In this document: positions 1,292 through 4,293 of the stretch, piece by piece | How the letters are laid out: every line of letters begins with the position of its first letter | Numbering within the stretch: position 1 is the stretch's first letter | Source of the DNA: a virus | Taxonomy: Duplodnaviria > Heunggongvirae > Uroviricota > Caudoviricetes | Length of the DNA stretch: 4,733 nucleotides | IMG/VR virus record: IMGVR_UViG_2703718787_000005 | Direction: 5' to 3' (one strand) | The notes under the pieces: model-generated | Database searches by the model: none | What the model was told of the DNA's origin: nothing | Seen by the model: only the letters and a program-made list of their open reading frames with translations | Made by a program: the position numbers and the translations under genes

Positions 1292-1558
1292 ATGCATGAA
1301 TGTTTAAAAAATAAAATTCACCAAAGAGGGTTATCCCAAGCAGGTATTGCTCGTTTGATTGGATTACCGCAACAGGTTGTGTCTCGATGGGCTAATGGTC
1401 AGCAGGTCCCTGCATCAAGGGTTCTGCAACTTTGTGAGATTATGGCGTGGGAGGTTACCCCCCACGAACTCCGACCTGATATTTATCCTAACCCAACAGA
1501 CGGCTTGCCTGCTGAGTTTCAGACTAGCACACAGCCAGCGACGGGAGTTGATTCATGA
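1292..1558 (+). CDS. ydaS: Cro-like HTH regulator, YdaS family, 88 aa
   Basis: SD GGAG 8 nt upstream. HTH (GLSQAGIARLIGLPQQVVSRWANG) followed by the ...ELRPDIYP... motif I associate with YdaS-family Cro analogues of Rac-type prophages. Divergent from the repressor. The stop overlaps the next start (ATGA). Confidence 0.8.
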   Translation: MHECLKNKIHQRGLSQAGIARLIGLPQQVVSRWANGQQVPASRVLQLCEIMAWEVTPHELRPDIYPNPTDGLPAEFQTSTQPATGVDS

Positions 1559-1980
1559 AAATCAAGCATGAGCACATCCGCATGGCGATGAATGCCTGGG
1601 CATATCCTGACGGTGAGAAGGTGCCAGCTGCTGCTATTGCCAGAGCGTATTTTGAACTGGGGATGACATATCCCGAGTTGCACAACGACGACAGGCACAA
1701 CGCGCTCTATCTCAACACCCAAAAGATTTTCCGTTGGCTGGATAAAGACACTCCTGATGCTGTTGAGAAAATTCAGGCATTGTTACCGGCGATCGAAAGG
1801 GCAATGCCACCTCCGCTGGTAGCCCGAATGCGCAGCCACAGTTCCGCTTATTTTCGGGAGCTGGTGGAGACGCAGGAACGGCTAGTGAAAGATATCGATG
1901 ATTTCGTTGCATCAGCGATCGTTCTGTTCGACCAGATGAATCGTGGTGGTCCGGCGGGTAATTCCGTGGCTGTGCATTGA
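1555..1980 (+). CDS. ydaT: YdaT-family protein (annotated in databases as 'toxin YdaT'; functionally a CII analogue), 141 aa
   Basis: Starts MKIKHEHI, as I recall for Rac YdaT. SD GGGAG 7 nt upstream. ATGA overlap with the cro-like gene. It sits where lambda has cII. Confidence 0.8.
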   Translation: MKIKHEHIRMAMNAWAYPDGEKVPAAAIARAYFELGMTYPELHNDDRHNALYLNTQKIFRWLDKDTPDAVEKIQALLPAIERAMPPPLVARMRSHSSAYFRELVETQERLVKDIDDFVASAIVLFDQMNRGGPAGNSVAVH

Positions 1981-2051: not shown

Positions 2052-3092
2052 ATGGCTAATGCCTGGCTCAGATTATGGCATGACATGCCAAATGACCCTA
2101 AGTGGCGAACAATTTCCAGGGTGTCAGGACAGCCAATCGCAACAGTGATGGCTGTGTATATCCACCTTCTGGTGAGCGCGTCACGAAATGTCACGACATG
2201 TCACGGCGTGTCACTACGTGGTCACATTGATGTCACAACGGAAGATTTAGCAAGTGCACTTGATGTGACGGAAGAAGTAATTGATTCAATTTTGCAGGCG
2301 ATGCAGGGGCGGGTGCTTGATGGAGATTTAATCACTGGATGGGAAAAACGCCAGGTAGCGAAAGAGGATAACGGCAACGTTTCGCAAACCGCGAAATCCC
2401 CGGCAGAGCGTAAGAGAGCACAACGCGAGAGGGAAAAATTACGAAAACAGAATGAGGGGTGTCACGATGAGTCACGCATATGTCACGACATGTCACTACG
2501 AGTCACGACAGATAAAGATACAGATAAAGAATTAAACCCCACACATAACGCGCGCATGCGCGAGAGTGCTCCAACCGGTGAGTCGCATGGTGCGCCGTTG
2601 CAGACAGCCGAACCTGAATACCTGGACGGCCTGAGCGAACCGATCGGGAAATTTTCGATGACTACTGTCTGGCAGCCGTCGTCGGATTTTCGACAACGGG
2701 CAGCAGTGTGGGGTATGGCTCTGCCTGAGCCGGAATTTACACCTGCAGAGCTTGCCGCATTCCGGGATTACTGGATGGCGGAGGGGAAGGTTTTCACGCA
2801 GGTTCAGTGGGAGCAGAAATTTGCCCGCCACGTGCAGCACGTCAGGGCACAGGTAAAACCAGTCAGCAAGGGGGTAAACCATGCAGCAGCACCAGGTGGC
2901 ACCGCATCACGGGCAGTTCAGGAAATTCGGGCAGCACGTGAGCAGTGGGAACGTGAAAACGGATTTATCAGCGACGGAAACGGCCTGGAAGCTGTGGGAG
3001 CTTATGGGGGAGGTGTATTCGAACCGCTGGACTCAGAAGAACGGGGCCGCACCTTCGAAGCTCTGGATTGCCCAGATTGGTGCGATGACTGA
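2052..3092 (+). CDS. Replication initiator (lambda O analogue): replisome-organizer-type N-terminal domain, linker, DnaT-like C-terminal domain
   Basis: I take the start at ATG 2052 (SD AAGAGGTGA upstream); the track ORF begins at an in-frame GTG at 2046. N-terminal motifs W.RLWHDMPNDPKW ... TGWEKRQ resemble the phage replisome organizer N-terminal domain. The C-terminal part (FSMTTVWQPSSDF...FTPAELAAFRDYWMAEGKVFT) resembles the DnaT-like domain common in phage initiators. Two iteron arrays lie inside the gene. Family assignments are from memory. Confidence 0.8.
   Translation: MANAWLRLWHDMPNDPKWRTISRVSGQPIATVMAVYIHLLVSASRNVTTCHGVSLRGHIDVTTEDLASALDVTEEVIDSILQAMQGRVLDGDLITGWEKRQVAKEDNGNVSQTAKSPAERKRAQREREKLRKQNEGCHDESRICHDMSLRVTTDKDTDKELNPTHNARMRESAPTGESHGAPLQTAEPEYLDGLSEPIGKFSMTTVWQPSSDFRQRAAVWGMALPEPEFTPAELAAFRDYWMAEGKVFTQVQWEQKFARHVQHVRAQVKPVSKGVNHAAAPGGTASRAVQEIRAAREQWERENGFISDGNGLEAVGAYGGGVFEPLDSEERGRTFEALDCPDWCDD
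2180..2236. repeat. Iteron array 1: six direct GTCAC-containing repeats at 10/10/10/11/11-bp spacing
   Basis: GTCAC starts at 2180, 2190, 2200, 2210, 2221 and 2232, all in the same orientation and on a helical-repeat period, inside the N-terminal domain coding region. Shares an exact 17-mer with array 2. Confidence 0.7.
2461..2506. repeat. Iteron array 2: five direct GTCAC-containing repeats at 10/11/10/10-bp spacing
   Basis: GTCAC starts at 2461, 2471, 2482, 2492 and 2502, in the linker-coding region of the initiator. This is the position where lambda ori lies within O. Confidence 0.75.
2461..2562. other. Probable origin of replication: iteron array 2, then an AT-rich stretch with GATAAAGA x2 (2509-2536), then a 12-bp perfect palindrome CGCGCATGCGCG (2551-2562)
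   Basis: The iterons / AT-rich / palindrome order is what I recall for lambda ori, but that is recollection. All three elements are directly visible in the sequence. Confidence 0.5.
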
Positions 3093-3546
3093 ACAGCAAA
3101 TCCGTCTGGTCTGTCGTCAGTGCATGGACCGCTGCCGGGCGGGTGAAACGTGGCCCCCGGACCTGGCTGAGTTTGTTGCACTGATTTCGGAGAGTGGGGC
3201 AAATCCATTTGGTCTTACGGTGGATGCAGTGATGGAAGAGTACCGGCGCTGGCGCAATGAATCCTGGCGATACGACGGGAGTGATAAATACCCGTGGCCA
3301 CAGCCTGTGCTGTACCACATTTGCCTCGAGATGCGCACCAGAGGGATTGAACGTCAGATGACTGAAAGTGAGCTGAAACGACTTGCGGAACGACTGTTGA
3401 CCAAATGGGCAAAGAATGTTGGTAACGGCATGAGTGTTCCGCCAGTGCGACGACAACTGGAAGGGCCAAAACACCCGCCAGGGCCAACGCCAATTGAGTT
3501 ACTGAAACAGGAATATGAGCGCCGGAAAGCGGCTGGTTTTGTCTGA
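2881..3546 (+). CDS. Lambda P-like replication protein (helicase loader), up to 221 aa; start uncertain (ATG 2881, 3004 or 3085)
   Basis: The C-terminal two thirds align by eye with lambda P as I remember it (YPW motif; MTESELKRLAERLL vs LTDAELRRKAADEL; FVALISESGA vs FVAWCREEA). Resemblance seems to continue upstream of the ATG at 3085, which favours 3004 or 2881. ATG 2881 has the best RBS (AAGGGGG, 6-nt spacer) but overlaps the O-like gene by 212 nt out of frame. Gene finders that forbid long overlaps would probably call 3085. Confidence 0.65.
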   Translation: MQQHQVAPHHGQFRKFGQHVSSGNVKTDLSATETAWKLWELMGEVYSNRWTQKNGAAPSKLWIAQIGAMTEQQIRLVCRQCMDRCRAGETWPPDLAEFVALISESGANPFGLTVDAVMEEYRRWRNESWRYDGSDKYPWPQPVLYHICLEMRTRGIERQMTESELKRLAERLLTKWAKNVGNGMSVPPVRRQLEGPKHPPGPTPIELLKQEYERRKAAGFV

Positions 3547-3579: not shown

Positions 3580-4293
3580 ATGGAAACCGTTTTTGACGCA
3601 CTGAAAGCACTGAAAAGAGCCTCTTCACAGGAGGTGTCGGCCCGCCTTGGAATCAGCCGCGAAGATGCTGTCAACGAGCTGTGGAAGCTGAAACGCCGTG
3701 GTGAAGCTGATAACAAGGGGTCGATGTGGTGGCTGACGAGTGAGGCAACTGAAATGGCCACAAAAACCACTGCGGAGATGCTGATTAACGCAATTGAACA
3801 GCATGGTCCTCAGTCGGCTGACGAACTGGCGTTAATGTTCGGGATTACCTCCCGCCGGGCGAATTCAACGCTGGCAATGGCAATAAGCAAAGGTCGTCTG
3901 ATTCGAGTAAATCAGAACGGTAAATTTCGTTACTGCCTGCCGGGCGATAATTTACCAGCAGAGCCGAAAGCTGCATCGGTAACGGAAACTGCTGGTAAAG
4001 CCTTTCCTCAGCCAGCAGGTGTTGCGTTACCAGTCCGGGAAGCGGAAACACAGGAAGAAATTAAAACTGAAAGTGTGGCGGTCACAGTGCAGTCACAGCC
4101 GTCGTTCACCAGAAAGCATCCGGATAGTCTGATTTTACCATCGCTGCATGTGGCTAACCGCGAACTGCGCCGGGCAAAAGGTCAGGTTCAGAAGTGGGAG
4201 CGAGTCTGTGCTGCGCTGCGTGAGCTGAACAAGCACCGGGATATTGTCCGACAGATTGTCGATTCCTCCAGTCGTATTGTGTCGGAAAAGTGA
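3580..4293 (+). CDS. Hypothetical phage protein with two winged-helix-like modules and a C-terminal coiled-coil-like region, 237 aa
   Basis: I take the start at ATG 3580 (SD GGAGG, 8-nt spacer) rather than the track's 3556. Two internally similar ~55-aa modules (…[38 protein letters not shown] and …[43 protein letters not shown]), a Pro/Ala/Glu-rich linker, and a charged helical C-terminus. Function unknown. Confidence 0.7.

Follow-up and report, generated by a model that had tools for sequence, protein, structure and literature searches.

In the plasmids P1 (incA and incC) and F (incC and ori2) the repeat bound by the initiator occurs in two clusters, only one of which lies beside the unwinding element, and the other cluster is a candidate for a negative control function through pairing or titration. 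In phage P4 a short initiator-bound repeat is found at the origin (ori) and at a second region required in cis (crr). The origin of phage lambda holds a single cluster of four iterons of about 19 base pairs (bp), and in Salmonella phage L six imprecise repeats of 11 bp within the initiator, gene 18, have been proposed as the origin (PMC8022706). The replisome organiser G38P of Bacillus phage SPP1 binds direct repeats in its own gene, 38 (oriL), and at oriR, and for the latter a role as an occupied roadblock, and not as a firing origin, has been proposed (PMC6316719). The locus analysed here is a 4,733-nucleotide stretch of viral DNA (Caudoviricetes; IMG/VR record IMGVR_UViG_2703718787_000005), referred to below as the window, which is the early-right region of a lambdoid Escherichia coli prophage. 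Its initiator gene carries two arrays of the short direct repeat (T)GTCAC(G), designated array 2, at the predicted origin, and array 1, farther upstream in the codons of the DNA-binding N-terminal domain (N-domain). Array 1 is probably a genuine second cluster of sites for the initiator N-domain with an accessory role in cis, and from the sequence comparisons described below we infer that it is bound.

The GTCAC cores of array 1 start at 2180, 2190, 2200, 2210, 2221 and 2232, giving spacings of 10, 10, 10, 11 and 11 bp, and those of array 2, which is kept in relatives, start at 2461, 2471, 2482, 2492 and 2502. The end of array 1 is 225 bp from the start of array 2. A period of 10 was assigned to both arrays by Tandem Repeats Finder, and the two are alike in site quality, with (T)GTCACG as the logo and a spacing of 10 or 11 bp. 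They have in common the exact 17-mer ATGTCACGACATGTCAC (2188-2204 and 2480-2496) and the further repeat TGTCACTACG (2209-2218 and 2491-2500). Six GTCAC repeats on a 10-11-bp period about 225 bp upstream of an origin-like array, with a 17-mer and a shorter word in common, had been claimed in the original prediction, and both the coordinates and the shared sequences were confirmed. A lone core in inverted orientation follows the direct copies of array 1, which with it spans codons 43-73 of the initiator gene (Table 1).

The two arrays differ in their surroundings. The regional minimum of guanine-plus-cytosine (GC) content, 0.35 at 2500-2539, lies beside array 2, whereas GC content next to array 1 is 0.45-0.53 with no dip rich in adenine and thymine (AT-rich). 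Array 2, the AT-rich run and the GC-rich palindrome to its right form a predicted origin of lambda-type layout. A near-identical sequence is present in Rac-SA53 ydaU, and the palindrome of the window recalls the one that lies right of lambda ori. The repeats of every class described below, and those of DUF1376-type initiators, lead into a GATA(C/A)AGATA run. This run, which codes for an Asp-Lys/Thr-Asp linker, is common to loci L001-L004, L085-L136 and L222-L258 despite their different N-domains and repeats. The AT-rich run may be read by the shared C-terminal DnaT-like domain or by the helicase loader, and not by the N-domain. Over window positions 2507-2700 the DNA is about 85 % similar to Rac-SA53 ydaU (L004:1490-1700), the similarity beginning at the border between repeats and AT-rich run, and 5' of this border ydaU encodes an unrelated N-domain and holds no GTCAC. 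Because the similarity begins at the border, a mosaic joint is placed there, dividing the N-domain and repeats from the AT-rich run and the DnaT-like domain.

Chance is excluded as the origin of array 1. The maximum number of same-strand GTCAC cores within 60 bp is six in the window and was three in 3000 dinucleotide-preserving shuffles. With the peptide held fixed and codons drawn randomly from the window's own codon usage, at least six array-1 cores were obtained in 3 of 200,000 trials (P = 1.5e-5) and at least five array-2 cores with P = 3e-4, and 29 % of the random synonymous recodings of 2172-2243 held none of the six direct cores. Synonymous recoding as an approach has a precedent in P1 repL (PMC9948254). 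The cores of array 1 occupy reading frames 2, 0, 1, 2, 1 and 0, that is all three frames, and the 17-mer common to both arrays is translated in a different frame in each.

For comparison, 52 loci were collected from one genome per species, phage records and viral contigs. A first scan of viral contigs returned only relatives of at least 96 % identity, which were of no use for conservation, and diversity was supplied by the species-level genome scan; a second viral scan, aimed at fusions of the N-domain with an HNH nuclease, yielded mainly full-length initiators. The repeat at array 2 is GTCACG, GTAACG, CGAACGC, GTAACGC/GAAACGC or GCAACGC, the last class being represented by Ralstonia phage Firinga (36 % protein identity), and in each class the same repeat is present at array 1, no GTCAC being found in either array zone outside the GTCACG class. 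When the commonest 6-mer of the array-2 zone was determined de novo, it occurred in 2-6 copies in the 140-bp array-1 zone and in 0-6 copies (mostly 0-3) on both strands of the remaining ~2.3 kb of each locus. The sequence of the repeat tracks the variant of the initiator N-domain at both arrays in at least five classes, as iterons do, and these comparisons show that array 1 switches together with the origin array when the repeat changes. The inverted copy, which is found in most GTCACG-class loci, follows the class synonymously: in the GTAACG-class Enterobacter locus L109 its Val codon is changed from GTG to GTT, converting GTGAC to GTTAC.

Array 1 is kept at the DNA level in more than 100 relatives. 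The double array is known from at least five specificity classes, and its hosts are prophages and phages from Escherichia, Shigella, Aeromonas, Pseudomonas, Bordetella, Ralstonia and other genera. Among 148 distinct sequences the direct copies of array 1 mostly number four or six, sometimes three or five, and the changes are in-frame. In 16 of 26 loci the arrays are separated by 227-229 bp; no helical phasing between the arrays was to be read from the gap distribution, which is shaped by coding constraint and by the choice of the first repeat. The feature is not universal. Array 1 is absent and array 2 clear in L124 and L138, repeats at the array-1 position are weak or missing in L112, L117, L123 and MW202613, the first three of which keep array 2, and no clear array 1 was found in the distant homologues MW202613 and a Microcystis phage.

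Codon usage under the motif indicates selection on the DNA of array 1 and not on the peptide. In 24 GTCACG-class homologues, with 62-92 % nucleotide identity to the window, residues with four- or six-fold codon degeneracy that the motif covers are represented by one codon in 92-100 % of the sequences (Ala GCG, Ser TCA, Val GTC, Thr ACG and Gly GGT), whereas at 26 other equally conserved residues one codon accounts for 25-59 % (Mann-Whitney p = 3e-5). Codon fixation under the motif is similar in the CGAACGC class (p = 0.003), and the Val codon of the inverted copy (Val72 in the window, alignment column Val-71) is GTG in 21 of the 21 homologues that have Val there. It had been proposed from the window alone that DNA and protein constraints are superimposed at array 1, and a comparison of homologous initiator genes had been suggested as a check; the fixed motif codons and the co-variation of the arrays in at least five classes bear this out, array 1 being conserved at the DNA level beyond coding constraint in the GTCACG and CGAACGC classes.

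The N-domain also occurs fused to an HNH nuclease, in proteins of 173-193 residues that belong to several repeat classes. These genes retain array 1 at the DNA level and have the HNH domain in place of array 2 and the AT-rich run. The fusions of L137 and L222 contain four direct GTCAC cores, with one inverted copy in L137 and none there in L222, and both hold GCGTCACGAAATGTCACGCGCGGTCACG despite diverged flanks; those of L220 and L221 contain three GAACGC repeats. In L137 and L220-L222 the next gene encodes a DUF1376-type initiator with its own, different repeats, followed in L221 by DnaB, and in L224 the next gene encodes a third type of N-domain. The HNH fusions could be origin-targeting nucleases or leftovers of initiator replacement.

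Repeats within N-domain codons were likewise found in these other initiators. In DUF1376-type initiators the origin repeat of the gene is also present in the N-domain coding region, at offsets of ~145-212. The initiator of L222 (2561-3388) has AAACGT at offsets 145, 156, 200 and 212 and origin copies at 360 and 382, and that of L245 has ACGTTA at 170, 181 and 192, an inverted copy at 209 and four copies at the origin; L240, L247 and L249-L255 have N-domain copies as well, with origin-side offsets of ~350-430. The background of the DUF1376-type repeats is 0-5 per ~2.1 kb. The third N-domain type, in L224 (2028-2399), carries GTAACG at 112, 123, 144 and 166 and again at 319 and 330. On these comparisons the double-array layout seems general for phage initiators resembling replisome organisers.

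The initiator matches a PHROG replisome organiser family (E = 3e-5), a remote relationship to SPP1 G38P. No Pfam or NCBIfam model matched residues 1-190; in Pfam only the DnaT family was matched, in the C-terminal part, with no O-family match at E<0.01, and the NCBIfam DnaT match was partial and below the cut-off. A profile of the N-domain matched no solved structure among PDB sequences. Fold comparison of a structure model gave a DnaD-like fold for the N-domain, resembling the oligomerising DnaD N-terminal domain. In the model the peptide encoded by array 1, SASRNVTTCHGVSLRGHIDVTT, comprises the end of a helix (29-45) and a loop (46-62), so that its original reading, in which the repeats were said to force this peptide into a loop of the winged-helix domain, was correct. 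Model confidence is ~73-76 in the loop and 95-97 in its flanks, the next helix is 63-70, and the inverted copy encodes the turn between helices 63-70 and 74-84. The in-frame variation of copy number from three to six means that the loop tolerates change, and this tolerance of insertions in the modelled loop fits a passenger peptide dictated by the DNA.

Full discrimination between the GTCACG and CGAACGC classes is confined to the array-1 loop, an insertion of nine residues (108-116) and three basic-helix positions; neither the helix-turn-helix nor the wing differs between the two classes. Initiators of the GT(C/A)ACG classes have K121, Q124 and R127 together with the 9-residue insertion (108-116; 2373-2399), and those of the xxAACGC classes have A, W and A at the basic-helix positions and lack the insertion. 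Since the basic helix is among the only class-discriminating residues, it is a candidate for a reader independent of the arrays and for a specificity determinant that lies outside the winged helix, and the class-tracking residues outside the arrays point to the initiator as the reader. The array-1-encoded loop might itself form part of the repeat-reading surface, so that site and reader would lie in the same nucleotides, an idea we hold improbable. It would entail that one DNA change, copied as a patch to array 2, switched site and reader jointly, which is likewise doubted.

Under the proposed mechanism, one protomer of the initiator N-domain would occupy each core of ~7 bp, and, with cores one helical turn apart, the protomers would all lie on the same side of the double helix, just as they would at array 2. 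Unwinding would take place at array 2 alone, the array adjoining the AT-rich run and palindrome, where the P-like loader, together with the DnaT-like domain at the C terminus, would recruit host DnaB. Array 1 would not fire and would serve as an accessory cis site 225 bp upstream. A second unwinding origin at array 1 was considered and was rejected because no AT-rich unwinding element adjoins it. With the sites inside the domain that would read them, mosaic recombination cannot part reader from site. Together with the missing AT-rich element, relatives that lack array 1 and HNH fusions that lack the origin array lean towards a regulatory or accessory role, and the fusions towards one that needs no neighbouring origin. 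A regulatory role is preferred, at chances a little short of even: initiator held on its own gene would either form a roadblock to read-through of the initiator/loader operon or, by handcuffing or looping between array 1 and array 2, restrict or time initiation, in the manner of P1 incA. What belief is left beside this role and the alternatives below goes to other roles, such as a fork barrier like that of SPP1 oriR and capture in cis of the nascent initiator; in the latter, an N-domain still being synthesised, with transcription and translation coupled, could take hold of array 1 on the template that encodes it, and the initiator would then act in cis.

Several observations weigh against an accessory cluster of initiator sites. 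No binding, footprint or genetic data were found in the literature for any member of the family, and the lack of array 1 in several homologues means that some working replicons can do without it or that those homologues are in decay. The array is situated ~130 bp into the gene, with no promoter-like site close by; classical autorepression by promoter overlap is therefore inapplicable, and a roadblock or pairing would be needed. Repeated copying from array 2 could hold array 1 similar without selection, and the N-domains of the HNH fusions were possibly acquired recently by recombination, which would weaken that evidence. The common orientation and the mostly constant gap of 227-229 bp suit positive looping equally well, and the gap is fixed by the coding sequence too.

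The leading alternative is a bipartite origin in which array 1 is a positive architectural element and initiator oligomers bridge or wrap the ~230 bp between the arrays. Such bridging or wrapping would store the torsional stress that opens the AT-rich run, as in P4 ori and crr or in an enlarged lambda O-some. The arrays share orientation, core and site quality; the gap recurs in the 16 of 26 loci given above; the N-domain has a fold like that of an oligomerising domain; and a 21-bp insertion in array 1 of the window, being seven codons and two helical turns, keeps the phase. Set against this, L124, L138, L112, L117 and L123 have array 2 and the AT-rich run and no array 1, the HNH fusions hold array 1 with no origin array nearby, and a conserved coding sequence alone imposes a constant gap. 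A bipartite origin is judged rather unlikely.

The same insertion bears on a second alternative, in which array 1 has no function and is kept like array 2 by ectopic gene conversion, or by slippage, into a tolerant loop. Sequence comparison indicates that the arrays exchange patches: exact patches of 15-21 nucleotides, covering two cores and a spacer, are common to both arrays in 13 of 51 loci compared, and the spacers are lineage-specific. Window positions 2195-2215 are a 21-bp in-frame insertion relative to four-copy alleles such as those of phage Tritos and a Shigella prophage; it amounts to two repeats and aligns with the central repeats of the window's array 2, from which these additional repeats appear to have been copied. 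Four-copy alleles and alleles longer by 21 bp are both common in E. coli prophages. The loop, of low model confidence and variable length, would accommodate such an echo, and array 1 is absent in some lineages. A functionless array is nevertheless very improbable, given that synonymous fixation extends across genera at 62-69 % nucleotide identity, that the lone inverted copy tracks the repeat class through the synonymous change from GTG to GTT, that array 1 persists in HNH fusions with no array 2 to copy (the sequence common to L137 and L222 among them), and that the same arrangement is seen in DUF1376-type initiators and in the third type.

Lambda CII-dependent promoters lie inside genes and have direct repeats one helical turn apart, and by this analogy, with a YdaT/CII-like gene just upstream (1555-1980), a CII-like (YdaT) or Cro-like protein might bind the 10-bp repeats and drive or block an internal transcript. 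The scan for promoters and terminators gave no promoter-like site near either array and only weak minus-strand hairpins, located at the GC palindrome, and no Rfam family was matched in the window. The motif moreover tracks the N-domain and array 2 and not the genes next to them, and the same array is present in Pseudomonas phage phita81A and in the HNH-fusion loci, which have different upstream genes; another regulator or an internal promoter is accordingly given hardly any credence. Least credible of all is a repeat at the protein level only, in which the DNA repeats would mirror a peptide repeated for the fold: the loop residues V47, T48, R56, G57, H58, V61 and T62 hardly vary among members of the class, and this reading was rejected since cores in three reading frames give no repeated peptide, the synonymous positions are fixed and the 17-mer lies in different frames in the two arrays.

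The window is 98 % identical across its full length to NZ_AP045820, and its features, with the HNH-fusion genes of other loci, are listed in Table 1. The helicase loader matches Pfam Phage_lambda_P (E = 1.3e-15) and PHROG 109 and is annotated in RefSeq as 'replication protein P'. The toxin-antitoxin pair immediately adjoins the prophage repressor gene. The DUF1627 gene holds two GTCAC cores (GTCACA) on the plus strand at 4081-4096, 11 bp apart, and these are the sole same-strand GTCAC pair of the window outside both arrays.

Table 1 Features of the window and locations of N-domain-HNH fusion genes in other loci
Feature	Position	Strand	Remarks
Array 1, six direct (T)GTCAC(G) cores	2180-2236	+	Codons 43-62 of initiator gene
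Inverted GTCAC core	2265-2269	minus	Val-Thr codons 72-73; 33 bp past last direct copy
Array 2, five direct GTCAC(G) cores	2461-2506	+	Linker between N- and C-terminal domains; origin-type iterons
AT-rich stretch, ACAGATAAAGA x2	2508-2530		Candidate unwinding element, directly right of array 2
Perfect GC-rich palindrome CGCGCATGCGCG	2551-2562		Right of AT-rich stretch
Initiator gene	2052-3092	+	346 residues
N-terminal DnaD-like winged-helix domain	residues 1-100		
Basic helix	residues 117-136 (2400-2459)		
Inter-domain linker			Encoded by array 2 and AT-rich run
C-terminal DnaT-like domain	residues 201-267		Pfam PF17948, E = 4e-17
Lambda-P-like helicase loader gene	3085-3546	+	Overlaps initiator stop codon (ATGACTGA)
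DUF1627 and DUF977 genes			3' of loader in gene order
ParE-family toxin and PaaA2/RelB-type antitoxin pair	275-753	minus	
CI-like repressor gene	777-1184	minus	
Cro/YdaS-like gene	1292-1558		
CII/YdaT-like gene	1555-1980		
N-domain-HNH fusion gene	L137:2501-3046		
N-domain-HNH fusion gene	L222:2001-2561		
N-domain-HNH fusion gene	L220:380-919		
N-domain-HNH fusion gene	L221:399-935		
N-domain-HNH fusion gene	L224:1501-2028		

Origins made of repeated initiator sites are textbook knowledge for phages and plasmids, but the lambda-type origin model has one cluster, and at this locus a matched second cluster is hidden in the codons of the initiator's DNA-binding domain; the double array is apparently present in the unrelated-looking DUF1376 (YdaU-type) initiators also. 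If the sites are bound, the way in which temperate phages restrict or time their early replication could be approached by experiment through array 1, and the array would be a clear instance of a dual code, with a protein loop dictated by a DNA site. It would suggest how the specificity of initiator and origin stays linked and switches jointly in mosaic genomes, and would provide a simple rule for predicting prophage origins and incompatibility classes from sequence alone. Under the same condition, the HNH fusions point to a reuse of origin-reading domains for targeting.

A literature search returned no description of GTCACG repeats, of the double array or of origins in DUF1376-type or DnaT-like phage initiators, a paper on the types of replication region in Shiga toxin (Stx) phages makes no mention of iterons, and no well-studied phage with this N-domain was found. 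A second array inside the codons of an initiator's DNA-binding domain is apparently undescribed. Among the systems introduced above, lambda ori with the O and P genes is alike in that the origin lies in the inter-domain linker of the initiator, with repeats, an AT-rich run and a palindrome, and is followed by a P-like loader gene; the specificity module is likewise the N-domain with its repeats, the joint with Rac-SA53 ydaU falling exactly at the border of repeats and AT-rich run. The locus described here differs in its repeats, which are ~7-bp cores every 10-11 bp, in having a second, matched cluster among the codons of the N-domain, and in its initiator domains, DnaD-like at the N terminus and DnaT-like at the C terminus, homology to lambda O not being found. 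Phage L has the same short-period style of iteron, whereas a single cluster was reported there, without comparative or synonymous-site analysis. In SPP1, oriL and oriR are ~13 kb apart, each with an AT-rich element, whereas the arrays described here are 225 bp apart in one gene with one AT-rich element. P4 ori and crr resemble the locus in the bipartite arrangement of the same short repeat; crr is kilobases away, and the P4 alpha protein is a primase-helicase unrelated to the initiator here. The control clusters of P1 and F are alike in being a second cluster of the same repeat, beyond the minimal origin and with no unwinding element. The plasmid clusters are non-coding and flank the rep gene, whereas array 1 occupies codons of the DNA-binding domain, whose loop peptide it dictates, and the replicon is that of a temperate phage, for which a control role is suggested by analogy with these plasmids.

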